A stretch of 64,000 nt of DNA from Candidatus Altiarchaeales archaeon (GTDB lineage: Archaea > Altiarchaeota > Altiarchaeia > IMC4 > SCGC-AAA252-I15). How positions within the stretch are numbered: the stretch's first letter is position 1; each line of letters begins with the position of its first letter. Of the stretch, positions 3,875 through 51,805 are shown one piece after another. The stretch lies in assembly GCA_014727915.1 (NCBI GenBank), contig WJMO01000006.1, forward strand, positions 265,882 through 329,881. Direction: 5' to 3'. The position numbers and the translations under genes were made by a program. Below the pieces are notes generated by a model. That model ran no database searches. It was given only the letters and a program-made list of their open reading frames with translations, and was not told the origin of the DNA.

Positions 3875-3896
3875 TAAATCGTTCGTATATTGTTCT

Positions 3897-4274: not shown

Positions 4275-4287
4275 CGTTCACAGATGA

Positions 4288-4295: not shown

Positions 4296-4320
4296 CTCCC
4301 TAGTTCAATGCATATATGGG

Positions 4321-6060: not shown

Positions 6061-6063
6061 GGT

Positions 6064-7268: not shown

Positions 7269-7272
7269 ATTA

Positions 7273-7980: not shown

Positions 7981-8054
7981 GAGATCACCTTTTGCCAGGT
8001 AACATATTAAGCGGCTATTATAAAAGATGGGTAATATACATAAGATAATCGAAG
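7981..8054. promoter_or_regulatory. divergent promoter region
   Basis: This AT-rich 74-nt spacer carries attataaaag (8017..8026) about 34 nt upstream of the ATG at 8055. On the other strand ttaatatgtt lies about 25 nt from the start at 7980. Confidence 0.35.
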
Positions 8055-20697: not shown

Positions 20698-21123
20698 TTG
20701 GACAAAAGAGGTCAGGCTTCGCTGGAATACATGGTAATGCTGGCATTGTCACTGGTTGTCTTCTCCGCCGTGCTGTATGTAACTGGTATGCTGATAAGCA
20801 CCAGCAGCATACAGGTGGGGGTGGACTCCGCCCACCGGGCGGTGGAGAAGATGAGGAGCTCCGCGGACTTCGTGTACGTCCACGGACACCCCTCAAGGAC
20901 TGAAATAAACGTTTACATGCCTCCGAACATCGAGGAAGTCAGCATCCCGGAGACCAACAACAGCATACGCGCCCGCGTGTCGGTCGGCGACACCTACACG
21001 GACATATACAGCGTCTCCAAGGGAAGCATATACGGCGACCTATCGCAGCTGGACAAGGAAGGCTACTACGTGCTACGCGTTGAATCCACTTCAGAACACG
21101 ACATAAACTTCACGCTGATATAG
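20698..21123 (+). CDS. pilin-like protein, type A' (class III signal peptide)
   Basis: The gene has a TTG start preceded by a Shine-Dalgarno-like sequence. The N-terminus is MDKRGQASLEYMVMLALSLVVFSAVL. It is a paralogue of 1..341. Confidence 0.75.
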   Translation: MDKRGQASLEYMVMLALSLVVFSAVLYVTGMLISTSSIQVGVDSAHRAVEKMRSSADFVYVHGHPSRTEINVYMPPNIEEVSIPETNNSIRARVSVGDTYTDIYSVSKGSIYGDLSQLDKEGYYVLRVESTSEHDINFTLI

Positions 21124-21127: not shown

Positions 21128-22102
21128 ATGAATAAACCATGGAAGAAGCGGGGACAGGTTAGCATAGAGTTCATGATAGTATTGGGGATAGTACTGACCA
21201 TCTTCATAATACTGGGCTACATCGTCTACAGGAACTACGTCAAGACAAGCGACCTTAAGGTCTACATATACGGCGTGCGATTGGCCAATCACATAGCGGA
21301 CAACATAAACACCATAAACGCCGTGGGAGAAGGTCACAGCACCTCCTTCAGCCTGCCGCCAAGCCTTTACGGAAACAGGGGATACAGCGTCAGCTTCTAC
21401 GAGAACTCTTCAACCGTCTATGTAGTGGGCACCAGCTTCTCACGCGGCGGGGGAGCGGTGACCTTCAGCAGCCCCATATCAACGGCGAACATCAACTGCC
21501 TGCTGGGAGAATGCAATATGGGATGCAATACGAGCCGGGTGGAGCAGTGCATCGCCGTTAACCGGAGCCTTGACATACGGCTTGTGAAGTACCAGGGAGG
21601 GATCTACATGACACAGGAGAACAATGTCATGCAGGCCAGTTCGGAGGGGTCCATCTCACCATTCACGGGAGAGGGGGATGTTACCGTTGGCAGCATACCA
21701 TCTTTCGTCGAGGTTGGAGAGGACTGGAACGTCATGTACGTCCACCATAACAGGTTAGACGACACAGTAAGCCTTGTGATAAGCCTCAACATCACCTCAG
21801 GGGATGCTGCAGAATACAACATATATGATATGGTAGGTGAGGTGTTGGAGGTGCAATCCAACGAGGCAGACCCCCAGAACCCCGAATTCAGCCTTAGCCG
21901 GCCTTTAGAGGGAGCCTGGAACAATGACCTGGGAGGGCTTGGAGACGTTGACGGGGCTGTTCTGAAGTTCAGGGACGGATTCCACCTCTGCATAGAGTCC
22001 GGTAGCGGCACTATGACTTCCAGCGACTGGAAGGTGGTCAGCTCGGACGGCAGTAGCATGCTCTTGGACAAGGAGGAGGACGTGTGCCTAGCATACCCGT
22101 GA
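21128..22102 (+). CDS. pilin-like protein, type B' (expanded)
   Basis: The N-terminus is KKRGQVSIEFMIVLGIVLTIFIIL. The first ~110 aa are collinear with 345..770, followed by a ~200-aa extra C-terminal domain. Confidence 0.75.
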   Translation: MNKPWKKRGQVSIEFMIVLGIVLTIFIILGYIVYRNYVKTSDLKVYIYGVRLANHIADNINTINAVGEGHSTSFSLPPSLYGNRGYSVSFYENSSTVYVVGTSFSRGGGAVTFSSPISTANINCLLGECNMGCNTSRVEQCIAVNRSLDIRLVKYQGGIYMTQENNVMQASSEGSISPFTGEGDVTVGSIPSFVEVGEDWNVMYVHHNRLDDTVSLVISLNITSGDAAEYNIYDMVGEVLEVQSNEADPQNPEFSLSRPLEGAWNNDLGGLGDVDGAVLKFRDGFHLCIESGSGTMTSSDWKVVSSDGSSMLLDKEEDVCLAYP

Positions 22103-22104
22103 AG

Positions 22105-24396
22105 ATGGAGAGAGGACAGATATTCACATGGGACCTGGTGTTCGGGATATCCGTATTCCTGATGACATTGTTCATCGTGACGCACGTGTGGAACAGCTCA
22201 TACAACGACCTAAGGCACGCTGAAGAGGAGTATGAGATGAACTGGCTTGCAGAAACCATCTCAGAACAGCTTGTGAGAACGGCCGGGGACCCGCTGAACT
22301 GGAGTCAAGGGCACGTGTTCGCCTTCGGCCTGGCGGAGGTCAAGGAAGGCCAGAGCAAATACGACAGCAGAGTGCTGGACGCCGACAAGATGCTCAAACT
22401 GGTAAGCAACTTCGGAGAGGACTATGAGGCTGCCAGGAACAACCTGCTAGGATCGAGCAAATACGAGATATACATAGAGTTCTCATGCGTAAACCGATCG
22501 GACCTAACATGCCTTCAGGGGCTTTTCCTGGACGAAATCAACGACCCAGTATCATGTGAGAACTATGTAATCGGGGTGAAGGACATGGTCACCAGCAGCT
22601 ACATATGGCTGGAGGCGGAGGATGAGTGGGGCAACTGGGAGGAATCCTACTGCTGGGAGGGGTGCAGCGGAGGCAACATGAGCCTGGTCCCCGACGGGAT
22701 CGAAGCGGATCTGAGCATGGACCCAGGGCTGTACCAGATGTGGGCTAGGGTGGTAGACCAGCAGACGAGCGCAGAGATGGTAGTGGACGGGCTGGCACAC
22801 CCGCTTCACCCGGATTCCGTGCCCGGGCCTGTCGGTTGGAAGTGGATAGGAGCTCAAGACCTCGGGAAAACAGCCAGGGTCCGCTTTGAGAAGACCGAAG
22901 GGGACATAGTAGACGCCCTGCTATTCACCACTGACCTCTTCTACGACCCCTCTCTGATAAACACCGAAGAATACGGGAACCCCGTTACATCCGACAAGTG
23001 CGTTATAGGGAAGGTCGGCAGGGGCCGCAACCACGTCACCGCAACCAAGAACGCTGTATTCGGGATGCCTGCAAAGGGCAGGGAGGTGATAACAGGGACG
23101 GCGGATAGGCTGGACAAGGAGTTGAACATGAAAGTCGTCGTCTGGACAGGCGAGGAACTGCCAGCCCGGGAGATGACAGGAACCGTAGGGACGAGCTCTA
23201 CGACATCCACCACCCTGCCTAAATGGATAGACTGCGAGGGTAGCCCAACGCCCGTGGAACCGTTGGAGGAATGCGAGTACGATTCTCACTCCATAGACAT
23301 AAGGAACATAACGCTATGGGGCCTCAATGGAATGAGCAGGGTCATCCGATGCGGGAGCGAGAAGAACCTCACAGTAAAGTGGCGTGGTAAGCACAGCAAC
23401 CACCCCAACTACTTCGCATTCTACCTTGACGACAGCCAACAGTACCTCGGGTCATGCCAGAGCGACAACACAGCGGAAGAGCTGATGGGAGAGGTCTACG
23501 ACTATGTCATGAACTGCACCATAGACATACCCGACGGGGACAGCTTCCCAGTCAAGGACGGATACCACGACTTCATAGTTACAGGCGAGGACTACGCAGG
23601 ATACTGCCCGCCAAGCCCCGGCGAGTTCTACGCAGACGATGAGGAGTCGACGAGAGTGGACGTCACGGAATGCATGGACTACACTAGCCTATCCTGCTCT
23701 CAGACCTCAGGAGTCGCGCTTAGGTGCGGAAGCGCAAGCGGTACGGTCGAGGAAGTATACGACGTAGAAGTGAGCGAACTAAACTGCGGATTCTTGAACC
23801 AGGTGGTGGTAAGGTGGGGTGGAACCCACGGAGCAGACAAGGAGGTATACTGGACTTTCGTCGTCGACACAGGAGAGGGTTTCAAGTGCCTTGGAACCTG
23901 CAAGTCGTCGGTGGACCCAGAGGACGGGCCAGGCAGGGAAGACTATGAGATGACATGTGACCTGAACCTGAACAACCTGGACTGTCTCGGAGACCCATAC
24001 AACATAGAAGGGGACTACTGGTTCTACGCAATCGCGGAATCAGACAACAGGGACTACTGCAGCCTGCCCAACAGTCCGGACGCTGAGGCGGTTGGCAGGA
24101 CCGGTAATCAGGTGACGGTGAACTGCATCCTATCCGGGAGCTACGTGCTCGTGAAATACTACGTTGACGTGGCGGTAGCGACCGGGTCGGAGCTGTGGAC
24201 GGACACCTCTGGGACATGGGAGGTGACGGCCACGGTCAGCCCGCTCGACCCGCCGACGGAAGGGGAGCACATGGCATTGATAGACGATATCGAACCCGGG
24301 GTTTACGAGTGGAACATCAAACTCTCCCCCGAGGGTGTGAAGCCGTTGACCAATGATTTCTTATACGATGAAAATCAAGAGTTAATAGTGGAGTAA
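22105..24396 (+). CDS. pilin-like protein, type C' with lectin-like and Cys-rich C-terminal domains
   Basis: The ATG at 22105 lies 2 nt after the B' stop (the track GTG at 22084 overlaps B'). The N-terminus is MERGQIFTWDLVFGISVFLMTLFIV. Motifs DPLNW..FGLAE..VLD are shared with 772..1281. A CBM6/35-like segment YIWLEAEDEW..SGG..LYQMWARV..GWKWIG..DALLFTTD lies at about 22600..22950. Confidence 0.7.
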   Translation: MERGQIFTWDLVFGISVFLMTLFIVTHVWNSSYNDLRHAEEEYEMNWLAETISEQLVRTAGDPLNWSQGHVFAFGLAEVKEGQSKYDSRVLDADKMLKLVSNFGEDYEAARNNLLGSSKYEIYIEFSCVNRSDLTCLQGLFLDEINDPVSCENYVIGVKDMVTSSYIWLEAEDEWGNWEESYCWEGCSGGNMSLVPDGIEADLSMDPGLYQMWARVVDQQTSAEMVVDGLAHPLHPDSVPGPVGWKWIGAQDLGKTARVRFEKTEGDIVDALLFTTDLFYDPSLINTEEYGNPVTSDKCVIGKVGRGRNHVTATKNAVFGMPAKGREVITGTADRLDKELNMKVVVWTGEELPAREMTGTVGTSSTTSTTLPKWIDCEGSPTPVEPLEECEYDSHSIDIRNITLWGLNGMSRVIRCGSEKNLTVKWRGKHSNHPNYFAFYLDDSQQYLGSCQSDNTAEELMGEVYDYVMNCTIDIPDGDSFPVKDGYHDFIVTGEDYAGYCPPSPGEFYADDEESTRVDVTECMDYTSLSCSQTSGVALRCGSASGTVEEVYDVEVSELNCGFLNQVVVRWGGTHGADKEVYWTFVVDTGEGFKCLGTCKSSVDPEDGPGREDYEMTCDLNLNNLDCLGDPYNIEGDYWFYAIAESDNRDYCSLPNSPDAEAVGRTGNQVTVNCILSGSYVLVKYYVDVAVATGSELWTDTSGTWEVTATVSPLDPPTEGEHMALIDDIEPGVYEWNIKLSPEGVKPLTNDFLYDENQELIVE

Positions 24397-24400: not shown

Positions 24401-27400
24401 ATGAAAAGGGTGGTTTTTTGTGTTTTCTGGCTTTTAACCCTGAGCAGCCTAGCTTCGGCTGACGTCACATACACAATCCACCCCCAGGAGCACACGTTCA
24501 GGCCTGGGGAGACGGTCGAATACTTCATAACAGTCAGCAACACAGGAGGAGCGACCGAGACTGTTGACTTCGACGTCACAGGACTGACCCCCGGATTCTC
24601 CTCTACGGTAGTGTACAGGGACGATGAAATACTAGCAGGAGCCTCCATAGTCGCCACTATGAGGATAACCGCCAACATCGGCGTCTCAGAGGGCACATAC
24701 ACCAACCAGGTAGTGGTGACCCCCAGCAGCCAGGGACCGTTGAGCGTTGACAACATCATACTACCAGGGCGCGGGAACCCCGTGGTAGAGGGGGTGGTGA
24801 ACTTCTGCCGGGACAGCGACAACCTGGTGAAGATGTCCTGCTCTTCCACGGGATACTTCGACTCCGACGCCCTGTGCGGGGGAGCCCAGGTCGGGCATTG
24901 GGTCGAGTTCGGCGATGGAGTGGACGCGGGCAAGTGCACGGAGATCGTGGGGGCAACCTGCGGTAGCGAATGCTGGCCGCTAGGACACCCGTGTCTGGAG
25001 ATAGGCATACCGGTAGTAGCGGAACAGGGCTACGCGTTCATGGTGTGGGAGAGCGGATTAAGCTGCAACGAGTTCGCCACAACAACCACCACATCAACGA
25101 CAGTAACGACCACCTCAAGCACGGTGATAACCACGACCAGCACCAGCACCACGTCGACCACCATATACCAGCCGCCGACCGAGAACTGCTGCAACCAGGT
25201 CGACGACGACGGCGATCCGTGGATCGACGGCGAGGACACCGTAGACTGCCAGAAGGACAGAGGACTGAACGTGGGCTGGAACAACATATGCTGGGCGACT
25301 AGGTGGGACGACTACGCCCCCAGCTCGGACTACCAGTCCGGCGAGTACACCTGCCCGACGGACCACATCGTCTCGGAAGTCGAGATAATCCAGTACATGG
25401 AGGATTGCTGCGACTACTTCCGCATATACGACTCGAGCGACAGCATAGTACACCAGAGCAACGGAGATAACGGGTTCAGGACCATCGACGTCAGGGGGGC
25501 GAGCACCCAGAGCATATACTTCGAGTTCACAAGCGACGGAAGCAACGAATACGACGGCGTGAGGGTGAACAGGATAGAATGCGAGCACGTGTCAGACCAG
25601 TGCCGGGACACGTGCATCTCGGAAGGCTACCTGGACGGACAGTGCAGGGGCATCGACCTCTCGGGCACATCATGCACCAGCTACCTACCGGACAGCTTCT
25701 GCGAAGTGGACTACCTTGGAGAGATGTGCTGTGAAGGGTTCTCCGACGGCACAGACTGCCCGGACAGCTCCTACGATTTCTTCGAGTCATGCTGCGAGAC
25801 AAACGGAAAATTCCTGGGAGGCTACGACCCAATGGCCCCGTTGGACTGCGCCGGTGAGGGAGTAACATTCGAGTGCGTGGATGACAACAACTGCGACGGA
25901 CTAGTATGCCTTGGGACCACCCACATAGGGAGGACTCCCTGCCCGTTCCCCGACCAGCAGCAGTGCTGCTGCAGTGGAACGCCCCAGACCACAACCACTA
26001 CGACCATAGTGTCCGCTCCGGAGGTCTGCTGCAACGACTACGACGACGACTACGACGGCTTGGAGGACGGAGAGGACGAGACGGACTGCAACGGAGACGT
26101 CACCCTGGAGGCTGGAGCGAACAGCGTATGCTGGTGGACGCGGTGGGACAACTACGCCTCTAGCTCGGACTACCAGTCCGGCCTCTACACCTGCCCGGCA
26201 GACCACATAGTTACAGACGTGGACGTCACGCAGGACATGGAAACATGCTGCGACTACTTTGAGATACTAGACGACACCGGAGCAGAGCTTCACAGCAGCT
26301 ACGGCCACTTCGGGGACAGGGTGATAGACCTTTCCACGCACAAGAAGCAGAGCATAAGGTTCCACTTCACCAGCGACATAAGCCAGGAATACGACGGCGT
26401 GAAGATAAACTCGATAACATGCGTGGAATACGTGGGCCCAACGACGACTTCGACCACATCCTCGACGGTGACCACATCAACCCTGCCCGGCGGATGCCTG
26501 GACATGGACGCGACACAGTACTGCGCGGTGACTGGCGGGCGCACGTTCACGGGAGAGTACATAACACGCGTGGACATTCATGGAATAGACCGCTCTTCGG
26601 GGCAGGAACGCTACCTGGACGCTACGGACAGCGTCACGGACCCGCTAGTGAAGACCGGAGTATACATGCTAAGGCTCTACTATCCGGCGGCTACAGGCCA
26701 GGCCGGCGACTGCTTCGCGGCCTGGTTCGACTGGAACCAAGACGACAACTTCGACGACGGAACGGAAAGGATCAGCCTTGGCTGCGCCCACACCGGCTCA
26801 GACCACATAGACGGTTTCGTCGGAGTACCATCGTCCGCGGTGAACGGGCCGACGATGTTCAGGATCATGGGCGAGGACGGCACACCCCCAGGCCCCTGCA
26901 CGGACCCGAGCTTCAACGAGATAGAGGATTACTCGGCATGCATAACGGACACAGGAACCCCGGCAACGACAACGACAACGACATCCACAACCCTGCCAGG
27001 GCCCGAGCTGATAATATCGGACGTCATAGTTTCGCCGAACCCGCCGGTGGCGGGGCAGAACAACGACCTCCAAGTCACCGTAAAGAACCTTGGCGTGGTG
27101 GAGGTCACAAACACTGACCTTTACATTTCATTCAAGGCCCAGGGAACAAGCTGCGGATGGACCAGCAAGTTCGTCTCTTCACTACCTTACAACGGAGAGA
27201 CCGTGTTCAGCGGGTTGTCCTACTTCATCGACACGGCCAGCGTAGGGAACGACCTGCTGATCGACGTCGACGTCAACCCCAACCTATGCGGGAGCGATAG
27301 GAACTATGTCAGCGAGGTCTTCGAGGACAACAACCAGTGGAATGCGGGCGCGGTAGAATCCCCGCCGATGCCGGACCTGATAATAACCGACGTGCAGCCG

Positions 27401-30400
27401 AGCCCGGACCCGCCGGAAGGGGACGCAACGAACAGCTTTGACGTGACAGTCAAGAACGTGGGAAGCGACAGCACAGGATCGGCCACAACATACCTTTCGG
27501 CTGATGTGGCCGGCACCAGCTGCCAGGAGACGAGCATATTCCTGAACGACCTCGCCCCGAACTCCCAGCAGACCTATACGATGAGCTTCTTCATCAACGC
27601 CGGAAGCGCGGGGCAGCCCATATACTTCGACGTCGACTACGGGCCGAATCTATGCGGTTATTTCAGGAGCTACATCACAGAGGAGGATGAGACAAACAAC
27701 GGATTCATAGGGCCGACCGTCCTGCCAGATACCATGGGATTGAGGAACCCTGGCTTCGAATCCGGGAGTGGCGCGGACGCGGACAACTGGGATGAAAGCT
27801 TCGCCAGTGCGGATAGGTCGAGCGACAGGTCGCATGACTCCACATATTCCATGAAGTTCATAGCCCCCAACACACCCCAGTCGGTGTTCCAGGAGACGGT
27901 TAGGGTTCTGCCAAACGTCGAATACCGCCTTGGAGGGTGGATATACGACAGCCTGACATCGGGTAACGCATACCTGGACCTGAACGACATAGGAGAGGAG
28001 TGCGAAGCCGGTTCGACGCTTAACGGCCAGTGGGAGCACGTGGAATGCACGTTCACAACGGGCAGCAGCAGAGAGATCGTCACCGTCCGTATGGTCACCG
28101 ACGGCTCCATCGCAGGGAACACAGGCAACGTATGGTTCGACGACCTGGAGCTGGAGCCTGCCGCGGCGGCGCCGGAGGTCTGCTGCAACGACGCGGACGA
28201 CGACTTCGACTCGTTGGAGGACGGCGAGGACATGGTGGACTGCAGCCAACCAGCCGTTTCGCTCTCCCCAGGATCTAACAGCGTTTGCTGGTGGACGCGG
28301 TGGAACGACTACGAACCGGGTTCAAGCTACAAGTCCTTCACCTTCGAATGCCCGAGCGGATACCACGTGAGCGAGCTGAACATGGACGTCGACACCGAGG
28401 CCAACAATGACGTCATAAGCATCTACGACGACTACACAAACTTCCTGCTGGCGGAGAGGAGCGGGAGCAGGCCCTCGGAGACCGTCGACGTGTCCGAGTT
28501 CAAGAAGGGCAGCGTGCACATGTGGTTCAGCAGCGACAGCAACACACAATACGACGGGGTCAAGGTGAACACGATCACATGCGGCCAGAGCCTGGACACC
28601 TGCGACGCGGAATGCCTGTCAAGGGGTTTCGACTCCGGAACGTGCCGGCCCATAGACTTGTCAGGGACCTTCTGCAGGGAATTCCTCCCTGATACCTGGT
28701 GCACAATAGACGATCCGGGCGGGAACCTCTGCTGCGAGGGCCCCGCGGACACGGACCTGGACTGCGCCAACGACCCGTACATGTTCTACTCGGCATGCTG
28801 CGGGCAGAACGGGGAATACCTGACGGAATACGACCCTATGGGTCCGGCTAACTGCGGCTTTGAGGGAAGCACCTTCTGGTGCGCAGCCACGGACCCTTGC
28901 AACGGCGTCTGCCTCGGGGACAGACACATCGGAAGGACGCCCTGTGCGGACCCGGACAATGAGGTGTGCTGCTGCGCGGGCATCGGTCCCACGACCACAA
29001 CATTGGGTGTGGCAACAGAGATCTGCTGCAACGACTTCGACGACGACACGGACGGGTTGGAGGACGGAGAGGACGAATCAGACTGCGACATGGACGTCAA
29101 CCTGAACACCGGGACAAACAACGTGTGCTGGTGGACGCGGTGGAACGACTACGCATTCGGCTCCAACTACGGGTCGGGATGGTACATATGCCCGGCGGGG
29201 AACATAGTGTCGGAGGTCAGCATAACCCAGGACATGGAAAGCTGCTGCGACTACTTCAGCATATACAATTCAGGCAATACAATCATAGATTCGAGCAACG
29301 GGCAGCAGGGAACTAGGACTTTGGACCTGTCAGCGGACGGCACAGACAGGATAAGGTTCGAGTTCACAAGCGATGGGAGCGTCCAATATGACGGGGTGAA
29401 GGTCCACACGATCACCTGCTTTGAGCCCACGCCAGAGGACTGCTGCAATGGCATAGACGACGACACGGACGGGTTAATGGACGGGGAAGACGAGGCAGAC
29501 TGCGGTGGGGGAGTGGCGATGCTCAGCAACACCGTTAATCCGATATGCTGGTGGACGCGGTGGGACGACTACTCACCTTTCTCAGACTATAACTCCCCCG
29601 TCTACGAGTGCCCTTTGAACAGCAAGGTGACGGATGTCGAGGTGGACCTGCAGACGGAGGGAGGTTATGACTACTTCAGGATATACGATGACGACGGGGA
29701 CGTTCTCTTGGAGGAGTTGGACGGGCAGTTCGGACTGTATACCGCAGACATCTCAAGCGACGACGCCAGGAGCATCTACTTCAACTTCTACAGCAACAGC
29801 GGAATCGAATATGACGGTGTAAAAATCAACAGCATAACCTGCGCGCAGATGACGACTACCACCTCGACCACCCTGCCGACAGCGATAACCGAGGGCGTGG
29901 TGGACGAGTGCGACGACACGGTCGACGGCGCGGGAACGTTCTGCGTCAGCGGGGAGGGCTTCAGCTCGGCAGCCCTGTGCGGCGGAGTCCAGGCAGGCGA
30001 CTGGGTCGGATTCCACACGGGATACGAGAGCGGCAGGTGCCTGGAGGTGGACACGACATTCTGCACTCCCTGCTTCGGAGGCTCCAACGACTGCATATAC
30101 TTCAACGAGGTCTTCCCCTTGACGATACAGCAGGGCGACCAGTTCAAAGTATGGGATAGTCTTACCGACTGCCTCGACGACGTGCCCGCGATACCCGCGG
30201 GGACCAACCTGGAGATAGTGAAGCTGGGCTCGAGCTGGGGGCAGATAGGCACGTACAACTCCGTGGACTTGAACGCGTATGTCAAGAACACCGGCACAGC
30301 CAACGCCGCCGCCACATTGTACGCGGACTTCCTGGTGGAGCACCCCAACGGCGACACCTGCCTCGCGGACACCCGAAGCACGGCATTGAACCCGAGAGAG

Positions 30401-33400
30401 GTCGGAAAGTTCACAGTACTATGGGACACTGACATAGACGTGGGTACTAACACGGTGACTGCATTCATCGACAAGGACAACACCTGCGGCAGCGGCCATG
30501 ACACGAACTCGGAGACTGATGAAACAGACAATTCGATCGTCGAAACGTTCGACGTGGCAGGCCCCGACCTGGTGATAACCGACGTATCAACCTCCCCGGA
30601 CCCTTTGGATGAGGGGAGCAACGACATCACCGTTACGGTCGAGAACATCGGTGGATCGACAGCATACGACCCGATAACGGTTAAGGTAAACGTTCCCGGG
30701 GAGCCGTGCGCCAGCGCGAACACGTTCGGACAGATGGACCCGGGACAGACTGAGACGGTCAGCATAAGCGGGTACGTGCTGAGCGCCAACGCAGGAGGCC
30801 GGCAGCTGAATGCGTCAGTTGACGCTAACCCGGACGTCTGCGGCCAGGACAGCGACAACACCCCATACGAGGAGGACGAGAGCAACAACGAATACGCGGA
30901 CGGCATAGTCGCCGGGGGAGGCCCCGACCTGCAGATAACCGACCTGCAGCTTAGCGACACAACACCCGCGAAAGGAGATTACATAACGTTCACCGCGACC
31001 GTGGAGAACACCGGGTCCTTCGAGACTACCATCGGTTGGATATACGTGGACATGGTCTTGGACGACGGGAGCTGCCTGTGCACGGGCAACGCATACGTGA
31101 ACATGCAGCCGGGTGACGCGAGGACTTTCAGCTGCGGGTGGACCGTGAACAAGGTGGGGACGCGCACAATAACGGCCATCGTCGACGGGCCGAACGACGA
31201 TAACAGCTGCGCCAACCACGATTACATCGACGAGATGAGCGAGACCAACAACGGCTTCCCGTACAACGTGGACATCGCCGGACCCGACCTGGTCATCGAG
31301 AACTTCCAGATGACACCCGCAAGCCCAGCATACAACGAGCAGGTGACGTTGAGCGCGGACGTCCGGAACACCGGGACCACAGCCACGGGTTGGGGCACCA
31401 AGTACATCTACTTCTCGCTCGATGACGGGATATGCCCCAGCATAGGCAACACCTACAGGAACCTCGACATCGCCGCTGGAGGGGTAGAGTCTTTCTCCCG
31501 GACATGGAACGCAAACACGAGGGGAACACGCACGATAACAGCGTCCGTAGACTCTAAAACACCCTGCGCCAACTACGACAACACCCCCGAGACCGACGAA
31601 TCGAACAACAACGCGACCACCGCCCCCTTCCACATACCGGGTCCGGACCTCCAGATAAGCAACCTAGTCATAAGCGACATGACACCCGCCATGGGGGACA
31701 GCGTTACCTTCACGGCTACCGTAGTGAACACCGGCGACGAAGCGACCAGCGGGAACAAGTACATCAAGTACGTGACGAACGAGAGCGAATGCCTCATCGC
31801 CACCTCGAAGAACGTGAACCTCGCCGCGGGCGGAGGCACCGACACCATAACGGGGAACTGGAACGTGAACGTCGCTGGGAAGCAGACGATAACGGCGATG
31901 ATAGACCGGAACCACGTTTGCGCCAACTACGACTACACCGACGAGACCGACGAGGGCAACAACAACTTCACGTCCACGCTGGTGGACATAACGCCCCCCG
32001 ACCTGGTAGTGGAGAGCCTCGAGTTCATACCATCAGACCCGGGAATAGGGGAGAATGTGATACTGAGAGCGACCATCAGGAACGACGGCACCGCAAAGGC
32101 GGTTAACAGTATCTATGTGATGTTCCAGAACGCCACCAGCTGCATAGGATACAGGAGCACCAGTTTGGACATCAACCCAGGGCAGAGCTACCAGATGTCT
32201 GATTACACCTGGAGCATGAAGTGGCCGGGCACCCAGACGATAACAGCCACCGTAGACAGGGACATCGCGGGATGCAATTGGAACTTCGACTACAACGCCG
32301 AAGCGGACGAGACAAACAACGAGCTGGCGAACACGTTCACTGTTTTGCAGCCGGACCTGATAATAGAGTCCCTGCAGGTGGAGCCTGCGAGCCCCGGAAC
32401 CAACGAGTACGTAACGTTCAGGGCTACCGTGGGGAACCAAGGACCGGGCACCGCAGGATACACTATACAGGTAGGATTCAAGAACGCTACAACCTGCATC
32501 GCGACCTCCCTCTCCTCCAATGACATACCTCCAGGCGGGAGCCTCGACATAACGCACAGCAGATACTGGAGGTGGCCCGGGGCGCAGACCCTGACTGCCT
32601 ACGTGGACACGGAAGTGCCAGCTTGCAGCTGGTACTTCGACAACCACCCCGACGAATTGGACGAAGGCAACAACGACTTGTCAACCACGTTCACCGTCCT
32701 CCAACCCGACCTGGAGATAGTCAACGTCGTCCCGGACCCTGACCCCCCGGCGCCGGGAGCCAACTACTTCGACATAACCGTCCGAAACAACGGGCCAGGG
32801 ACCGCGGGCGGGAACATAGTTGTGACTTACAAGTCGCCGGGTACATCCTGTGTGTCAAGGTCCACCGGCACGGACATACCATCGGGCGGGGAGTACACGT
32901 TCAACAACCAATACTACAACATGCAGGCCGCGAGCGCAGGGCAGGGTGTCATGTTCGACGTGGACAAGGCGGACAGCCTATGCGGCAACGACCAAGACAA
33001 CAACATTGAGACCGACGAGACCAACAACGAATACCAGATCGGCTCAGTATCCCTGCCAGACCTGGTGGTAAGCAACGTGGCCACCAGCCCGGACCCGCTT
33101 GCGGCAGGGCAGTGGAACGACCTGGACATAACCATAGAGAACCAGGGAGCCGGGCCGACGGACAGCAGCTACATATACACGTCCGTGATAGCCCAGGGTT
33201 CGAACTGCAACAACTACAACACCCCCTATAACCTACACCTCGCCCCCGGGGAATCATACACGTACAACGTACAATACTACATATACGGGTCAAGCTCTGG
33301 GGAGAACCTAGTCGCGTCGGTGGACGCGAGCCCCAGCGTCTGCGGAGGAACCAGCTACAACTACAACATAGAGTCGGACGAGACCAACAACCAGCACACC

Positions 33401-33418
33401 ATCGGAGTGATAACTTAA
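24401..33418 (+). CDS. giant secreted multidomain surface protein (3005 aa), putative adhesin
   Basis: The ORF is uninterrupted and starts 4 nt after the C' stop. It has a Sec signal peptide (MKRVVFCVFWLLTLSSLASA). Its modular content is listed in the repeat features and findings. Confidence 0.9.
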   Translation: MKRVVFCVFWLLTLSSLASADVTYTIHPQEHTFRPGETVEYFITVSNTGGATETVDFDVTGLTPGFSSTVVYRDDEILAGASIVATMRITANIGVSEGTYTNQVVVTPSSQGPLSVDNIILPGRGNPVVEGVVNFCRDSDNLVKMSCSSTGYFDSDALCGGAQVGHWVEFGDGVDAGKCTEIVGATCGSECWPLGHPCLEIGIPVVAEQGYAFMVWESGLSCNEFATTTTTSTTVTTTSSTVITTTSTSTTSTTIYQPPTENCCNQVDDDGDPWIDGEDTVDCQKDRGLNVGWNNICWATRWDDYAPSSDYQSGEYTCPTDHIVSEVEIIQYMEDCCDYFRIYDSSDSIVHQSNGDNGFRTIDVRGASTQSIYFEFTSDGSNEYDGVRVNRIECEHVSDQCRDTCISEGYLDGQCRGIDLSGTSCTSYLPDSFCEVDYLGEMCCEGFSDGTDCPDSSYDFFESCCETNGKFLGGYDPMAPLDCAGEGVTFECVDDNNCDGLVCLGTTHIGRTPCPFPDQQQCCCSGTPQTTTTTTIVSAPEVCCNDYDDDYDGLEDGEDETDCNGDVTLEAGANSVCWWTRWDNYASSSDYQSGLYTCPADHIVTDVDVTQDMETCCDYFEILDDTGAELHSSYGHFGDRVIDLSTHKKQSIRFHFTSDISQEYDGVKINSITCVEYVGPTTTSTTSSTVTTSTLPGGCLDMDATQYCAVTGGRTFTGEYITRVDIHGIDRSSGQERYLDATDSVTDPLVKTGVYMLRLYYPAATGQAGDCFAAWFDWNQDDNFDDGTERISLGCAHTGSDHIDGFVGVPSSAVNGPTMFRIMGEDGTPPGPCTDPSFNEIEDYSACITDTGTPATTTTTTSTTLPGPELIISDVIVSPNPPVAGQNNDLQVTVKNLGVVEVTNTDLYISFKAQGTSCGWTSKFVSSLPYNGETVFSGLSYFIDTASVGNDLLIDVDVNPNLCGSDRNYVSEVFEDNNQWNAGAVESPPMPDLIITDVQPSPDPPEGDATNSFDVTVKNVGSDSTGSATTYLSADVAGTSCQETSIFLNDLAPNSQQTYTMSFFINAGSAGQPIYFDVDYGPNLCGYFRSYITEEDETNNGFIGPTVLPDTMGLRNPGFESGSGADADNWDESFASADRSSDRSHDSTYSMKFIAPNTPQSVFQETVRVLPNVEYRLGGWIYDSLTSGNAYLDLNDIGEECEAGSTLNGQWEHVECTFTTGSSREIVTVRMVTDGSIAGNTGNVWFDDLELEPAAAAPEVCCNDADDDFDSLEDGEDMVDCSQPAVSLSPGSNSVCWWTRWNDYEPGSSYKSFTFECPSGYHVSELNMDVDTEANNDVISIYDDYTNFLLAERSGSRPSETVDVSEFKKGSVHMWFSSDSNTQYDGVKVNTITCGQSLDTCDAECLSRGFDSGTCRPIDLSGTFCREFLPDTWCTIDDPGGNLCCEGPADTDLDCANDPYMFYSACCGQNGEYLTEYDPMGPANCGFEGSTFWCAATDPCNGVCLGDRHIGRTPCADPDNEVCCCAGIGPTTTTLGVATEICCNDFDDDTDGLEDGEDESDCDMDVNLNTGTNNVCWWTRWNDYAFGSNYGSGWYICPAGNIVSEVSITQDMESCCDYFSIYNSGNTIIDSSNGQQGTRTLDLSADGTDRIRFEFTSDGSVQYDGVKVHTITCFEPTPEDCCNGIDDDTDGLMDGEDEADCGGGVAMLSNTVNPICWWTRWDDYSPFSDYNSPVYECPLNSKVTDVEVDLQTEGGYDYFRIYDDDGDVLLEELDGQFGLYTADISSDDARSIYFNFYSNSGIEYDGVKINSITCAQMTTTTSTTLPTAITEGVVDECDDTVDGAGTFCVSGEGFSSAALCGGVQAGDWVGFHTGYESGRCLEVDTTFCTPCFGGSNDCIYFNEVFPLTIQQGDQFKVWDSLTDCLDDVPAIPAGTNLEIVKLGSSWGQIGTYNSVDLNAYVKNTGTANAAATLYADFLVEHPNGDTCLADTRSTALNPREVGKFTVLWDTDIDVGTNTVTAFIDKDNTCGSGHDTNSETDETDNSIVETFDVAGPDLVITDVSTSPDPLDEGSNDITVTVENIGGSTAYDPITVKVNVPGEPCASANTFGQMDPGQTETVSISGYVLSANAGGRQLNASVDANPDVCGQDSDNTPYEEDESNNEYADGIVAGGGPDLQITDLQLSDTTPAKGDYITFTATVENTGSFETTIGWIYVDMVLDDGSCLCTGNAYVNMQPGDARTFSCGWTVNKVGTRTITAIVDGPNDDNSCANHDYIDEMSETNNGFPYNVDIAGPDLVIENFQMTPASPAYNEQVTLSADVRNTGTTATGWGTKYIYFSLDDGICPSIGNTYRNLDIAAGGVESFSRTWNANTRGTRTITASVDSKTPCANYDNTPETDESNNNATTAPFHIPGPDLQISNLVISDMTPAMGDSVTFTATVVNTGDEATSGNKYIKYVTNESECLIATSKNVNLAAGGGTDTITGNWNVNVAGKQTITAMIDRNHVCANYDYTDETDEGNNNFTSTLVDITPPDLVVESLEFIPSDPGIGENVILRATIRNDGTAKAVNSIYVMFQNATSCIGYRSTSLDINPGQSYQMSDYTWSMKWPGTQTITATVDRDIAGCNWNFDYNAEADETNNELANTFTVLQPDLIIESLQVEPASPGTNEYVTFRATVGNQGPGTAGYTIQVGFKNATTCIATSLSSNDIPPGGSLDITHSRYWRWPGAQTLTAYVDTEVPACSWYFDNHPDELDEGNNDLSTTFTVLQPDLEIVNVVPDPDPPAPGANYFDITVRNNGPGTAGGNIVVTYKSPGTSCVSRSTGTDIPSGGEYTFNNQYYNMQAASAGQGVMFDVDKADSLCGNDQDNNIETDETNNEYQIGSVSLPDLVVSNVATSPDPLAAGQWNDLDITIENQGAGPTDSSYIYTSVIAQGSNCNNYNTPYNLHLAPGESYTYNVQYYIYGSSSGENLVASVDASPSVCGGTSYNYNIESDETNNQHTIGVIT
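25076..25165 (+). repeat. Thr/Ser-rich linker (low complexity)
   Basis: This segment encodes ATTTTTSTTVTTTSSTVITTTSTSTTSTTI. Similar shorter T-rich linkers lie at about 25981..26010, 26441..26480, 26950..26990 and 29851..29880. They also occur at 52430..52487 and 52981..53040 in another gene. Confidence 0.85.
25181..26431 (+). repeat. segmental unit 1: CUB-like module / Cys-rich module / CUB-like module
   Basis: CUB-like copies lie at 25181..25590 and 26015..26431. Each has CCN.(D)DD.D...DGED..DC, then (I/V)CW(A/W)TRW(D/N)(D/N)Y, CP, CCDYF.I(Y/L)D, F.FTSD....YDGV.(V/I)N.I.C. They flank a ~130-aa Cys-rich module (25591..25975). Confidence 0.8.
26485..26948 (+). other. GEVED-like domain within giant protein
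   Basis: The segment contains ..CFAAWFDWNQDDNFDDGTERISLGC.. and ends in FNEIEDYSACI, which compares with the W.D.N.DG.F / GEVEDY signatures of the GEVED domain. Confidence 0.5.
26996..27705 (+). repeat. two CARDB-like Ig repeats
   Basis: The repeats are PELIISDVIVSPNPPVAGQNNDLQVTVKNLG ... EDNNQWN and MPDLIITDVQPSPDPPEGDATNSFDVTVKNVG ... EEDETNNGF. Confidence 0.7.
27726..28165 (+). other. CBM4_9-like carbohydrate-binding jelly roll within giant protein
   Basis: The segment begins LRNPGFESGSGADADNWDE and ends NVWFDDLELE. The N.GFE.G...W start and the final hydrophobic-D-D-h-.l strand are typical of CBM4/9-type modules. Confidence 0.5.
28169..29425 (+). repeat. segmental unit 2: CUB-like module / Cys-rich module / CUB-like module
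   Basis: The order is the same as in unit 1: CUB-like at 28169..28593, Cys-rich at 28594..28985, CUB-like at 29011..29425. The Cys-rich modules align throughout (C.(D/A).C(I/L)S.G(Y/F)(L/D).G.CR.IDLSGT.C...LPD..C ... HIGRTPC..PD...CCC(S/A)G). The DNA string tgctggtggacgcggtgg recurs at about 26129, 28277, 29126 and 29546. Confidence 0.8.
29426..29850 (+). repeat. fifth CUB-like module
   Basis: The module reads PEDCCNGIDDDTDGLMDGEDEADC...ICWWTRWDDY...YDYFRIYDDDG...IYFNFYSNSGIEYDGVKINSITC. Confidence 0.75.
30195..33415 (+). repeat. tandem array of nine CARDB-like Ig repeats
   Basis: Unit starts lie at about 30195, 30560, 30919, 31279, 31639, 31994, 32348, 32702 and 33055, a period of 353-365 nt. 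Each unit begins (G/P/Q)PDL.(I/V), then ..P..G....(T/I)..(V/I).N.G, and ends E(T/S)DE(T/S/G)NN. Confidence 0.8.
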
Positions 33419-33435: not shown

Positions 33436-33459
33436 AGGGATATATCCATTTAATTGTAC

Positions 33460-34980
33460 ATGGGCGGCCATAAGCTCCGATGGGAACTGATAGCAGGGAA
33501 TGGCTTGGGTAAGACTGCTAGGAAGGCTTTCAACACCCTCCCGTACCTAATACTCGTCCTTCAGGTCCTGACTTACATGCTCATATTCACGGCGACCACC
33601 TTCAACGAGTACAACCGGTTCTGGTACGGGAACTTCGACCTGGGAATACCAGACCAGGGCATATGGCTGCTGTCAAGGTTCCAGAACCCCTACCTGACGA
33701 CCAGGGGGCTGCACCTTTTCGGAGACCACGCATCCTACATACACCTGCTCGTCGCGCCCATATACTGGATATGGGACGACGTCAAAGCCCTGCTGCTGCT
33801 GCACACTGCGGCGTTGGCCATAGCGGCGGTTCCGGTATACCTGATCGCCCGGGACAAGTTCGGCAACAACTGGACGCCGCTGGTGTTCAGCCTCTCATAC
33901 ATCATGCTACCGGCGGTACACTACAGCAACCTCGACCAGGGATACCACTATGAGACTTTCATGGTGCCCTTCCTGCTCTTCGGATACTGGTTCCTCACAC
34001 GCAAGATGTACAAGCCATACTATCTTATGATATTCCTCTCCCTCATCTGCAAGGAGGAGATAGCAGTGTCCATAGTGCTGTTCGGGGTCTACGTTGCGTT
34101 GAAGCACGACCGGAAGGCGGGTGTTATTACCTCGGCTGCTGCATTGTTCTACCTGCTCATGGTGATGAAGGTGCTGTTCCCGATATTCAACCAGGAGGGG
34201 GCGTTCTATACCGACCGAACCCTCGGCTCATACGGTAAGACGCCGTTGGACAAGGTGAAGAGCTTCACAAACACCACGTTGATGGAGAAGAAGCTGAACA
34301 CCGAGAAGAACAGGGTTTACGTGAAGAAGCTTCTGGAGTCAACAGGGTACATGGTCTTGCTGGAGCCAATAGCAATGGCGGCATCGGGATCGCTGTGGCT
34401 CAACATGCTCCAGGACTGGTCCTACGCCCACGAGATACAGTACCACTACGTCACGCCCATCATACCGTTCATATACATAGCCCTGATAAACGGGATTGGG
34501 AGGTTCAGGAGGAGCGAGGGTATTATGGCCATGCTCTTGTACCTGATTCTACTTTCCACGTTCTACGGGAACTACCATAACAGCCCCGGGCAGAGCACCC
34601 TACGCCACCCCGAGCGGATGATGACCGAGATAGAGAACTTCGACGAGGTGACGGAGGAGAACGCCGGCATACTGGAGTTGATGGATTCCATACCGGATGA
34701 CGCGTCCGTCTCCGCCACATACGACTTCGTCAGCCATCTCAGCCACCGGAAGACCATATACATGTTCCCCAACCCGTTCAGGATAAACCTGTACGGGATA
34801 GAGGAGCGGGGCGTCCACCCCGACAAGGACGTCGACTACGTGCTGTTGGACATGCGGCTGATAGGGGACGAAGAGCAGAAGCACGGGTCCGTCAGCAAGG
34901 TCACGAAGAGCGGGAAGTACGAGCTGGTGAGAGAGTACAGGTTCGTCCAGCTATGGAAGTACAAGGGAGAGCCCGAATAG
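33460..34980 (+). CDS. DUF2079-like polytopic membrane protein (probable GT-C)
   Basis: The ATG is at 33460. The sequence ..LFGDHASYIHLLVAPIYWIWDDVKALLLLHTAALAIAAVPVYLIA.. fits the lg.H..pi.ll..P.y.l....ll..q....a..a.p.y pattern of DUF2079. There is a large C-terminal extracytoplasmic domain. Confidence 0.65.
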   Translation: MGGHKLRWELIAGNGLGKTARKAFNTLPYLILVLQVLTYMLIFTATTFNEYNRFWYGNFDLGIPDQGIWLLSRFQNPYLTTRGLHLFGDHASYIHLLVAPIYWIWDDVKALLLLHTAALAIAAVPVYLIARDKFGNNWTPLVFSLSYIMLPAVHYSNLDQGYHYETFMVPFLLFGYWFLTRKMYKPYYLMIFLSLICKEEIAVSIVLFGVYVALKHDRKAGVITSAAALFYLLMVMKVLFPIFNQEGAFYTDRTLGSYGKTPLDKVKSFTNTTLMEKKLNTEKNRVYVKKLLESTGYMVLLEPIAMAASGSLWLNMLQDWSYAHEIQYHYVTPIIPFIYIALINGIGRFRRSEGIMAMLLYLILLSTFYGNYHNSPGQSTLRHPERMMTEIENFDEVTEENAGILELMDSIPDDASVSATYDFVSHLSHRKTIYMFPNPFRINLYGIEERGVHPDKDVDYVLLDMRLIGDEEQKHGSVSKVTKSGKYELVREYRFVQLWKYKGEPE

Positions 34981-34994: not shown

Positions 34995-37226
34995 CTATTT
35001 TCTTAAATAATTCATGATTTTATCAAAATAACCCCTGTATTCCGGTATCAGGGTGTTGTGTCTGTTTGATATGAGAACGTCGGCTGCGAACACCAGACAG
35101 GCCAGGGGGAAGTAGAGGACCCACGAGTGCCATATGTTCAGCTCGTGGTTTATCTGCCAGTAGCCGACGACCAACAAAGGCATGAGCGCGGAATATCGGT
35201 TGTTGAGGAAGAACGCCAGTATTAGGAAGGGCATGCACCATAGGAGATACTGCTCGTGGATGACGTGGGTAGACACGAGGAATAGGGTGAACACCAACGC
35301 CCCCATCGTATACCGGTCCAATCTGATGAAAAGGGATGTTAGGACGATGAGCGCGAAGTAGGACCTGAACATGAGGTTCCTTATGGTAACGTAGTCTTCG
35401 AAACCCCACCCCTCCAATTTGGTCATCCAAGACATGCCTGCGGGCGGGCGGTCCAGGTTAGGGCCTATCAGACGCTCGTACACCAGCAGGGGATCGTCCA
35501 CCAGGAAAGGCAGCATTAGGAGGAACGCCAGCAGCAAAGCCATGAAAGTCCTCTTGTAAAGCCTCTTCTGCAATATCAGCCATGGGAGCAATAGAAGCGC
35601 GAATTGTTTGTGCACGAGAGCATAACCATAGTAGAGAGAGAACCTCGAATGCTCGATGTTCTTCAACGCTAGGAGTATCAAGCCCAGTCCTAGAGCGTCT
35701 GTCTTCCCCTCTGAAGCGCCTATTCTAAGGACCTCGGGGTTGAAGAGGTAGAGGGAGACAGCCAACAACGCCAGGGTCTTGCTCTTGCCTCTGCCACGGA
35801 GTATGGACCAGATGCCGTATGCGACAAGCAGGTCTCCAAGTACGGCAGGCAGCTTTATGAGATAGGGCAGGTATAGGGAGTTGAACCCGAACAATACCCT
35901 GATGATTCCGAGGGGGTACATGGCCCAGCCCGGGGGCTTGGTCAGGTATAGGTTCCCGTTGAAGTTGTAATCCGGATCCAATAGGGTCAGGTGGAGGTCG
36001 GTCTTGTGTATGAGGTTCTCGGTGTAATAGAGTTCCATGTCCTTGACGTCTATGTTGAGGAAGGTGGGCATTATGACGACCCGTATCATCATGGCGAAGA
36101 TGACCACTGCGAGTATCATCCGGTTCTCATGGACGATCCGGCAGAGGCCCCGTAGTGATTCGGAGAAGTCACGCCCTCGAACACAGACATACGAGTAATA
36201 GCATAGCACAATAAGAGATAGCAGTGCGGTGACACGCCATTCGAACGCGTTAAGGCCGTGTTCGACGAAGAAATAGCCACCACCCCTGCCGCGTGTCCTG
36301 ACGGCCAGGGTGTGGATTTCCTCATCCCCCAAATTCGCCCTTAACCTGTACCCTGAAGTGTACTGGACCCTGGACGCGCCATTGTCGAACTCTAGCTCTC
36401 CGTCCAAGTAGACCTTTTCTACGTTAAGGTCCGATACTATGTCGATTTCGACCTCCTCTGCGGAAGATGTGAACTTCACCACGTTGAAGCCGCCACCCCT
36501 GAAGAAGGGGAGATCCACCTCCCTGAAGCCCCTGAGGCCATACCAGGGCTGATACCACCCGCCACCCTCATAGCTGCTGTAGAACGACCCAACCACCTTG
36601 AACTCCCTCGCATTCTGGAATATCATGAACGAGGAGAGGAGGAGCAGAAGCAGCGACAACACGAGGATAGCATGGGGCGCCATTCCCTCCAGGACATGCC
36701 CATAGTCCTCCAGGACCGCGCGGAATAATAGCAGGACGGATGATGCGAGGACAGCAAGCATGAGGAAGATAACCGGTGGTGATTCGCCCGCCAGGTTCAG
36801 CCTGCCCTCCCCCCCGCCTGTGTTCATCACGTGCAGGGCCAGAACATGACCGCCATCATCCTCTCCGCCGGATAGGTTGAGGTCAAGTCCTGCGCAGTGG
36901 GTGCATGAGCCGCAGCTGCTGTTGAATATCATGCGCCCGTCAAAGTATGCCTTGGATAGGCAGTCGTCAACCTTTATTATCCTGAAGACCCCACCGGCTG
37001 GGAGCTTGTCCATGTGTATTCGAAAGTATCCCTCAAGGTTTTCGGTGTAGGAGGAAACGGGAAGCCACATGCCGTCGTCGAATGACCTATCCCGCCATCC
37101 GGGGACCCTGTCTTGGCTGTAGCGTATTTCATACGAGTATTGGCTTCGGTAGTCGTTGAGTGCGTATAAGCTGGCTACCATCAACACCATATAGAGCAGA
37201 ACCTTCAGCTTCTTCCAAGAGCCCAT
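34995..37226 (-). CDS. membrane protein: two jelly-roll ectodomains plus GT-C (DUF2029/GT87-like) domain
   Basis: The true start is the ATG at 37226 (M66 of the track ORF), 2 nt after the asnB stop. The track N-terminus overlaps asnB. The first jelly roll (36792..37115) carries the CGSCTHC cluster. The C-terminal part ..KLPAVLGDLLVAYGIWSIL..LYLFNPEVLRIGASEGKTDALGLGLILLAL.. is GT-C-like. Confidence 0.7.
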   Translation of the reverse strand: MGSWKKLKVLLYMVLMVASLYALNDYRSQYSYEIRYSQDRVPGWRDRSFDDGMWLPVSSYTENLEGYFRIHMDKLPAGGVFRIIKVDDCLSKAYFDGRMIFNSSCGSCTHCAGLDLNLSGGEDDGGHVLALHVMNTGGGEGRLNLAGESPPVIFLMLAVLASSVLLLFRAVLEDYGHVLEGMAPHAILVLSLLLLLLSSFMIFQNAREFKVVGSFYSSYEGGGWYQPWYGLRGFREVDLPFFRGGGFNVVKFTSSAEEVEIDIVSDLNVEKVYLDGELEFDNGASRVQYTSGYRLRANLGDEEIHTLAVRTRGRGGGYFFVEHGLNAFEWRVTALLSLIVLCYYSYVCVRGRDFSESLRGLCRIVHENRMILAVVIFAMMIRVVIMPTFLNIDVKDMELYYTENLIHKTDLHLTLLDPDYNFNGNLYLTKPPGWAMYPLGIIRVLFGFNSLYLPYLIKLPAVLGDLLVAYGIWSILRGRGKSKTLALLAVSLYLFNPEVLRIGASEGKTDALGLGLILLALKNIEHSRFSLYYGYALVHKQFALLLLPWLILQKRLYKRTFMALLLAFLLMLPFLVDDPLLVYERLIGPNLDRPPAGMSWMTKLEGWGFEDYVTIRNLMFRSYFALIVLTSLFIRLDRYTMGALVFTLFLVSTHVIHEQYLLWCMPFLILAFFLNNRYSALMPLLVVGYWQINHELNIWHSWVLYFPLACLVFAADVLISNRHNTLIPEYRGYFDKIMNYLRK

Positions 37227-37228
37227 GT

Positions 37229-51792: not shown

Positions 51793-51805
51793 ACATGGTC
51801 TGAAG

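Follow-up and report, generated by a model that had tools for sequence, protein, structure and literature searches.

In a stretch of 64,000 nucleotides from a Candidatus Altiarchaeales archaeon (NCBI GenBank assembly GCA_014727915.1, contig WJMO01000006.1, positions 265,882 to 329,881 of the forward strand; here called the window), a single open reading frame (ORF) encodes a protein of 3005 residues, referred to below as the giant protein. Five modules of this protein are divergent homologues of the CUB domain, despite scores below the Pfam threshold, which extends a canonical "animal" fold for ligand recognition to archaeal lineages. The modules define a rare CUB-type family that is not captured by Pfam and whose predicted Ca2+ sites are testable on recombinant single domains. 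As a whole, the product is probably a modular, non-catalytic protein of the cell surface, exported, very acidic and rich in Cys, and would act as a long adhesin: its CUB-like modules would bind Ca2+, and co-encoded pilin-like proteins would retain it at the cell.

Among uncultivated archaea of the subsurface (Altiarchaeota, DPANN), most surface proteins carry no annotation beyond "hypothetical"; they presumably help to form biofilms and to attach symbionts to their hosts. Both giant modular proteins of the adhesin type and archaeal CARDB proteins have been known before. The new element is a divergent CUB subfamily with a Ca2+-type N-terminal motif, outside the coverage of Pfam, together with two orphan Cys modules, a unique five-CUB architecture and the context of a pilin operon.

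CUB-like modules and their predicted Ca2+ sites

The five modules, each of ~140 residues, display 37-59% mutual identity (E down to 1e-46) and are located as follows:

25166..25588 (+): CUB-like module 1, residues 256-396; putative Ca2+ site E334/D338/D379
26006..26428 (+): CUB-like module 2, residues 536-676; putative Ca2+ site E614/D618/D659
28160..28588 (+): CUB-like module 3, residues 1254-1396; putative Ca2+ site E1333/D1337/D1379; lacks the internal CC pair
29003..29425 (+): CUB-like module 4, residues 1535-1675; putative Ca2+ site E1613/D1617/D1658
29420..29848 (+): CUB-like module 5, residues 1674-1816; E1753/D1757, with N1799 in place of the third Asp

Their homology to CUB domains follows from the agreement of three independent tests, i.e., a profile search, a profile-profile alignment (hhalign) and structure prediction by AlphaFold2 (AF2) combined with Foldseek. 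The search profile was built from the giant protein's own two CUB-spacer-CUB units, and an exhaustive search with it covered 1.84 billion representative proteins. About 30 close relatives headed the matches, followed by proteins to which Pfam assigns CUB domains at E 1e-30 to 0; these Pfam-verified proteins, among them one with 13 CUB and 13 Sushi domains and two bacterial type IX secretion system (T9SS) proteins with CUB and fn3 domains, were retrieved at E 1e-22 to 1e-9. Alignment by hhalign of 36 archaeal modules with 43 true CUB domains yielded a probability of 98.2% (E 5.7e-14 over 85 columns). Both sandwiches of the first CUB-spacer-CUB unit were modeled by AF2 at pLDDT 75-90, and the top Foldseek matches of the model in the PDB were all CUB proteins (probability 1.00, E ~1e-7), with CUB1-EGF-CUB2 of C1r/C1s at the top, along with neuropilins, PCPE-1, cubilin, MASP-2, enteropeptidase, Kremen, spermadhesin and TSG-6; for the single-domain CUBs 1sfp and 2wno the target-normalised TM-score was ~0.5. 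Both AlphaFold models rest on alignments of two rows, and the fold evidence is moderate. A PDB sequence search with the whole giant protein or with the five-copy profile retrieved nothing, Pfam CUB gave 15.4 bits for the whole protein and 15.9 bits for the highest-scoring copy, and only 4 of 36 family members matched Pfam CUB at E<=0.1 (best 5.9e-5). The label "CUB-like", given to the five modules in a preliminary description made from the DNA letters alone, is nevertheless borne out by the three tests.

In the hhalign columns, the E-x3-D and F-x-S-D-x-S of the archaeal modules fall on the E...(Y)D and F.SD.S of CUB domains. In C1s, residues Glu45, Asp53, Asp98 and Ser100 constitute the Ca2+ and lysine-binding site (PMC4222235). 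Residues aligned with Glu45 and Asp53 are found in all five copies and the third, Asp98-equivalent Asp in four, from which we infer that the modules bind Ca2+ at the canonical Glu/Asp/Asp site. Like the Ca2+-binding CUB domains of metazoa (C1r/C1s, MASPs, cubilin, neuropilins and PCPE-1; PF00431), the archaeal modules have the same predicted beta-sandwich, show significant profile-profile homology and keep the Glu/Asp/Asp(Ser) residues of the Ca2+/ligand site in four of five copies. They differ from the metazoan domains in scoring below the Pfam threshold, in the replacement of the canonical N-terminal Cys pair, in an extra acidic Cys-flanked motif of 25 residues and in that the host is an archaeon. 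The order CUB/Cys-rich/CUB recalls CUB1-EGF-CUB2 of C1r/C1s/MASP, the top Foldseek match, except that the EGF module is here a spacer of 135 residues and 18 Cys that is itself an orphan.

The acidic motif opens every CUB-like module with CCNDxDDDxDGLEDGEDExDC, and the consensus among relatives is ENCCNxxDDDxDGxEDGxDxDCQ. It gave the sole PDB sequence match of the family profile, i.e., the C-rich domain of teneurin-4 (7plp; 25 residues, E 0.17), in which eight acidic residues coordinate three Ca2+ in a thrombospondin (TSP)-type-3-like arrangement (PMC9058538). As in teneurin C-rich and TSP type-3 sequences, the pattern C..D.DDD.DG(L).D..D.DC of the modules aligns with CGDSKDNDGDGLVDCMDPDC of teneurin-4, the three-Ca2+ stretch; unlike in the teneurin domain, two of the six teneurin Cys are unmatched. 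Pfam TSP_3 and MopE gave no match at E<=10 in the giant protein, and the AlphaFold confidence for the motif is low. We regard the resemblance to the TSP type-3/teneurin C-rich kind as a lead and do not assign the motif to that family. The Ca2+ dependence proposed in the preliminary description gains indirect support from the aligned CUB Ca2+-site residues and from this TSP3/teneurin-like motif in front of each module.

The family is rare. The CUB-like profile matched 73 of the 1.84 billion representative proteins at E<=1e-3 (34 at E<=1e-10), and the full module occurs in about 30. In a clustered protein collection the giant protein is a singleton cluster, and BLAST comparison with the other 72 matches (E<=1e-5) found similarity in the CUB-like modules only. 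Its five copies are the highest number, with at most four in relatives, where the module stands in other mosaics (PA14 with NHL; CARDB with a papain protease and DUF2341; a papain protease with FG-GAP). The CUB-like module is apparently mobile among extracellular mosaic proteins, and the search for homologous giant genes found relatives that share this module only, none the overall architecture. Short relatives display the order CUB/short Cys spacer/CUB and end in G.C....CCC, so the order is a family trait while the long spacer is unique to the giant protein.

Among species-representative genomes, the module was found in one Aenigmatarchaeota metagenome-assembled genome (MAG), one Altiarchaeia MAG and one unclassified archaeon. 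Because the family is present in Altiarchaeia and Aenigmatarchaeota genomes, it is not an obvious recent import, and the strong divergence of the archaeal form also argues against recent transfer. The earlier view that such domains belong rather to adhesion proteins of bacteria and eukaryotes is accordingly half right. CUB matches in Pfam have also been noted in sponge-associated Thaumarchaeota (PMC7848895). In GTDB-representative genomes there was no close relative of the N-terminal 1930 residues of the giant protein, the only match being to GEVED in a Bacteroidales MAG. A word-index search returned nothing useful with the CUB-spacer-CUB unit, two tiny fragments only with the 36-member module alignment and no homologue of the Cys module described below, with an index that also missed the giant protein itself.

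The relative in the Ca. Aenigmatarchaeota MAG (JASEGC010000001.1, 7913..10927) is a protein of 1004 residues that combines Cys-rich regions and Thr/Ser linkers of great length with a signal-anchor and a single CUB-like module, which carries the ENCCNDVDDDGDGKENGADTDCQ motif; pilin-like ORFs are found 4-5 kb downstream. Two candidate parallels to the giant protein's locus were rejected: the 505-aa ORF downstream of this relative is unrelated to the DUF2079 gene that follows the giant ORF, and the ORF upstream of it, on comparison, is not syntenic with the 770-aa gene that precedes the giant ORF.

Architecture and composition of the giant protein

The repeat map was obtained by cutting the giant protein into pieces, each of which was compared with the whole protein. 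This self-comparison reproduced the module order and repeat map of the preliminary description, whose coordinates were within a few codons, and the ORF itself is as described there. In addition to the CUB-like modules, the features are:

24401..33418 (+): giant ORF, 3005 codons, ATG start, TAA stop
24401..24460 (+): Sec-type signal peptide, MKRVVFCVFWLLTLSSLASA with DV after the cleavage point, read from sequence
24461..24769 (+): N-terminal Ig-like beta-sandwich; DUF11, CARDB and NEW3 all sub-threshold
24770..25078 (+): Cys module, copy 1, 8 conserved Cys
25589..25990 (+): Cys-rich spacer 1, residues 397-530, 18 Cys
26483..26944 (+): GEVED domain, Pfam match at residues 772-845, ends FNEIEDY
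26996..27715 (+): CARDB repeats 1-2, residues 866-1105
27728..28150 (+): CBM_4_9-like jelly roll, starts NPGFESG
28589..28990 (+): Cys-rich spacer 2, residues 1397-1530, 18 Cys
29873..30184 (+): Cys module, copy 2, internal repeat of copy 1
30197..33415 (+): nine tandem CARDB repeats, residues 1933-3005, to the stop codon

The blocks are separated by Thr-rich linkers at residues 227-254, 530-535, 680-689, 856-864 and 1818-1824. Two of the domain families were matched well above their cut-offs, as had been proposed: CARDB (PF07705) in 11 stretches (2 + 9; 238.4 bits against 22.7, E 7.5e-72), the last of which extends to the stop codon, and GEVED (PF20009; 55.3 bits against 24.4), where the motif G/N-E-[VI]-E-D-Y is present as FNEIEDY. 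In the C-terminal array every CARDB repeat has one Cys pair with a spacing of ~44 residues, and all repeats but the first end in E-x-[DS]-E-x-N-N. The proposed CBM4_9-like jelly roll is a borderline case, with E 1.5e-5 over 125 of 136 profile positions of CBM_4_9 (PF02018) and a score of 25.8 bits, 0.1 bit under the cut-off of 25.9; a PDB sequence search gave a weak match to a T9SS protein. The N-terminal domain, described earlier as of the NEW3/DUF11 type, is an Ig-like sandwich, but neither family reached threshold (DUF11 22.5 against 24.6; NEW3, also named NPCBM_assoc, 13.3 against 24.4); AlphaFold predicts seven strands at pLDDT 60-78, and Foldseek gave no match at E<=1e-3, only generic Ig-like neighbours.

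The remaining modules are Cys-rich. The two copies of the Cys module (~100 residues; 128-222 and 1829-1924) are 36% identical (E 1e-14), while the two spacers of 135 residues are ~48-60% identical, with all 18 Cys at equivalent positions. A hidden Markov model of the spacer only found no match among the 73 CUB-like proteins, every best stretch listed in the exhaustive search with the CUB-spacer-CUB profile includes CUB columns and none the spacer alone, and no PDB sequence homologue was found for the spacer or the Cys module. With an AF2 pLDDT below 50 for both, spacer and Cys module are orphans without detectable homologue or confident fold. The spacer starts (25598..25690 and 28598..28690) carry C-x3-C-x3-G-[YF]-x2-G-x-C-R, a defensin-like Cys pattern; plant gamma-thionin (Pfam, E 0.0027) and a Defensin-1 chain (PDB 6bam, 34 residues, E 0.12) are matched weakly here, which is a lead only.

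An ORF this rich in repeats, in a metagenome-derived genome, could in principle be an assembly artefact, i.e., a chimera or a collapse of repeated modules from several genes. The repeats are, however, old and divergent, with a DNA identity of at most 83% over at most 86 nt (best 83% over 76 nt) and of 70-77% over 239 nt, so that short-read assemblers would not be expected to mis-join them. Tandem Repeats Finder reports no tandem array at the DNA level, the reading frame is open for 9 kb and the G+C content is even along it (0.56-0.59). The recorded contig measures 536,761 bp. An artefact is hardly credible, and a collapsed-repeat assembly was rejected on the divergence of the repeats.

In composition, the giant protein is 10.8% Thr, 10.0% Asp and 4.0% Cys (121 Cys, including CC and CCC clusters), and its acidic residues (D+E 463) far exceed the basic ones (K+R 111). 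The sole hydrophobic 19-mer is that of the N-terminal signal (residues 4-22). This N-terminus is of the Sec type, with neither a lipobox nor a class III motif, i.e., without the [KR]G-x followed by a hydrophobic helix of archaeal type IV pilins. The preliminary description saw no C-terminal anchor, and the hydrophobicity scan and NCBIfam agree: there is no C-terminal transmembrane (TM) segment, no hydrophobic stretch outside residues 1-22 and no PGF-CTERM match of the kind found in archaeosortase substrates. The C-terminus reads ...ESDETNNQHTIGVIT, and the last CARDB repeat reaches the stop codon. Pfam and NCBIfam revealed no catalytic domain, and HemolysinCabind or related RTX/type I secretion system (T1SS) families were absent among the Pfam matches.

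Sequons (N-X-S/T) are strongly depleted in the giant protein, with 6 observed and 36.4 +/- 5.6 expected from 500 shuffles of the residues (z -5.5, minimum 23). The six reside in the C-terminal CARDB array (residues 2137-2695); residues 1-2136 have none, in spite of 6.6% Asn and 19% Ser+Thr. This pattern suggests selection against N-glycosylation of the half that would carry the binding modules; the Thr-rich linkers may be O-glycosylated instead.

Pilin-like operon and proposed function

The giant ORF is the last gene of a four-gene block that begins with three pilin-like genes:

20698..21123 (+): pilin-like gene 1, 141 aa, class III signal MDKRGQASLEY, then a hydrophobic helix; first in the operon
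21128..22102 (+): pilin-like gene 2, 324 aa, Pfam Class_IIIsignal at 24.8 bits against a cut-off of 23.7
22084..24396 (+): pilin-like gene 3, 770 aa, N-terminus ERGQIFTWDLVFGISVFLMTLFIV (ERGQIFTWDL, then a helix)

The third product has a large Cys-containing extracellular part and no Pfam match. The gaps between the four genes are 4, -19 and 4 nt, i.e., genes 2 and 3 overlap by 19 nt. A TATA-like TTTATAATTTAAATA and an AGGAGG are found upstream of the first gene, a Shine-Dalgarno-like GGAG precedes the ATG of the giant ORF, and a T6 run follows its stop codon (33431-33436). This operon suggests how a giant protein that carries no anchor could be retained. Retention through partners or the N-terminal part had been proposed from the absence of an anchor, which stands, but the strongest clue, the pilin-like operon, was missed.

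We propose the following scheme. The giant protein would be co-transcribed with the three class-III-signal pilin-like proteins encoded directly upstream, exported, and kept on the cell surface through non-covalent contacts with these proteins or their fibre. Its candidate binding modules, namely the five CUB-like sandwiches, GEVED, the borderline jelly roll, CARDB repeats 1-2 and both kinds of orphan Cys-rich module, are located in the N-terminal two-thirds and the nine-CARDB beta-sandwich rod in the C-terminal third; the CARDB array would act as a rod-like spacer, and from this layout one may guess that the C-terminal end faces the cell or the fibre. Ca2+ would be loaded at ~4-5 canonical CUB sites and at the five acidic motifs, which would stiffen the protein and mould its ligand-binding sites. 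The ligand may be a glycan or a protein on a mineral, a biofilm matrix or a partner cell; the glycan binding named in the preliminary description would depend on one borderline CBM_4_9 match, and the cell-cell or cell-host contact named with it would be a conjecture.

The main rival to an adhesin is a structural role, in which the giant protein, secreted in large amounts, would be cross-linked through Ca2+ and Cys chemistry into a biofilm matrix or an outer sheath, like the beta-sandwich hami subunits or S-layer proteins. The absent anchor, the very acidic and Cys-rich composition and the long array of beta-sandwich repeats would all fit, and Ca. Altiarchaeum hamiconexum forms biofilms and has hamus subunits with a beta-sandwich fold that resembles S-layer proteins (PMC4460559). 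Yet the giant protein is a singleton without a full-length relative, whereas the major structural proteins of a lineage tend to be conserved among its members; modules such as CUB, CBM and GEVED serve recognition rather than lattice formation, and Pfam and NCBIfam revealed no similarity to S-layer or hamus families. We consider a structural role unlikely, though it is the alternative to be taken most seriously.

Alternatively, the product could be released as a soluble capture protein for a polysaccharide, a metal or another organism's surface, with the pilin-like genes as functionally unrelated neighbours. A cleavable Sec signal without a retention motif is what such a protein would have, and the CC/CCC clusters together with ~460 acidic residues could chelate metals. 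Release is at odds with the tight packing of the four genes (4-nt gaps and an overlap), which points to co-expression; a CARDB-repeat rod of 3005 residues would moreover be costly for a diffusible binder, and layouts of stalk plus head are typical of cell-attached adhesins (PMC7493085). Release into the medium is distinctly improbable.

The preferred reading, a pilus-associated adhesin, resembles in part the bacterial giant adhesins exported with RTX/T1SS (SiiE, LapA, MpIBP), which likewise are very large and have a tandem Ig-like rod and acidic inter-repeat motifs; ligand-binding modules at one end and an expected stiffening by Ca2+ are further points in common (PMC7493085, PMC5466336). Unlike these proteins, the giant protein has no RTX repeats, T1SS signal or retention module and would be exported by Sec, its binding modules are N-terminal and its rod C-terminal, and the repeats are CARDB, not BIg. 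With archaeal CARDB surface proteins and large extracellular proteins of DPANN and Altiarchaeota it shares CARDB arrays, Thr-rich linkers and Cys-rich modules; it differs from them in an overall architecture without a match in relatives and in the absence of a PGF-CTERM or TM anchor.

Several observations weigh against the adhesin reading. Adhesion, like Ca2+ dependence and pilus display, is inferred, in its case from domain types alone. None of the five CUB-like copies reaches the Pfam CUB (PF00431) cut-off of 21.4 bits (scores 15-17 bits), CBM_4_9 is just under its own, the teneurin match of the acidic motif is weak (E 0.17), and no fold could be assigned to ~470 residues (both Cys modules, both spacers). 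The link to the pilin-like genes is positional and from one genome only: the 770-aa pilin-like protein has no detectable relative in GTDB-representative genomes, and the Aenigmatarchaeota relative has pilin-like ORFs only at a distance of 4-5 kb. Lastly, the 121 Cys would be exposed outside an anaerobe, so one may ask whether they form disulfides at all. The host lineage is known from anoxic, often sulfidic groundwater, and the many Cys of this exported protein may form disulfides or bind metal.

A bolder extension, speculative and on balance improbable, is that the CUB-like module and its acidic motif constitute a distinct, unannotated archaeal recognition domain that Altiarchaeota and DPANN would use in cell-cell (host-episymbiont) contact. 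The five-module giant protein would then reside on a type IV pilus-like fibre of the three co-encoded pilin-like proteins, as an archaeal Sec-exported, pilus-borne counterpart of the bacterial giant adhesins.

Other genes of the window

Further genes that bear on pilus assembly and on glycosylation are:

345..770: fourth small pilin-like ORF, class III signal, near the pilus assembly genes
4321..6060 (+): FlaI/TadA-like ATPase of pilus-type assembly, ~15 kb upstream of the giant ORF
6064..6951 and 8055..9035 (+): two T2SSF platform proteins, pilus-type assembly locus 4321..9035
10130..11716: PMT_2 polytopic membrane protein
33454..34980 (+): DUF2079 polytopic membrane protein, probably with its own promoter; its link to the giant ORF is positional only
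46848..49082: PTPS_related polytopic membrane protein

The type IV pilus-like locus (345..9035) is followed by GT4 and PMT_2 glycosylation genes, and several GT2/GT4 genes together with PMT_2, DUF2079 and PTPS_related surround the locus of the giant ORF. Together with the GT genes, the latter three families, which we take to be members of the Pfam GT-C clan, would fit a neighbourhood dedicated to protein glycosylation. An ORF of 396 residues (1655..2845, +) shortly before the pilus ATPase, without a Pfam match and without Cys, is rich in sequons (15 N-X-S/T against 5.2 expected, z +4.8) and may encode a heavily glycosylated surface protein.

Two Cys-rich ORFs without a Pfam match are found at 49939..54448 (+), one of 617 residues with 44 Cys and the other of 902 residues with 60 Cys and a class-III-like N-terminus (MRRGYLVTLDAIISLSFILF); both may be further pilin-like surface proteins. 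For an ORF of 1703 residues (40181..45292, +), whose N-terminus resembles a signal-anchor, neither Pfam nor NCBIfam gave a match; two of its segments are 29-30% identical (E 1e-15 and 1e-10) to an ORF of 808 residues on the opposite strand (34995..37421, -), and the two look like members of a paralogous surface-protein family. The origin of the window in Altiarchaeota is borne out by its ArgJ, which is 64% and 56% identical to two Ca. Altiarchaeota MAGs, with 45% for the match that comes next. The window also encodes DUF460, DUF373 and a TYW1-type wyosine-formation gene, which we take to be archaeal markers.

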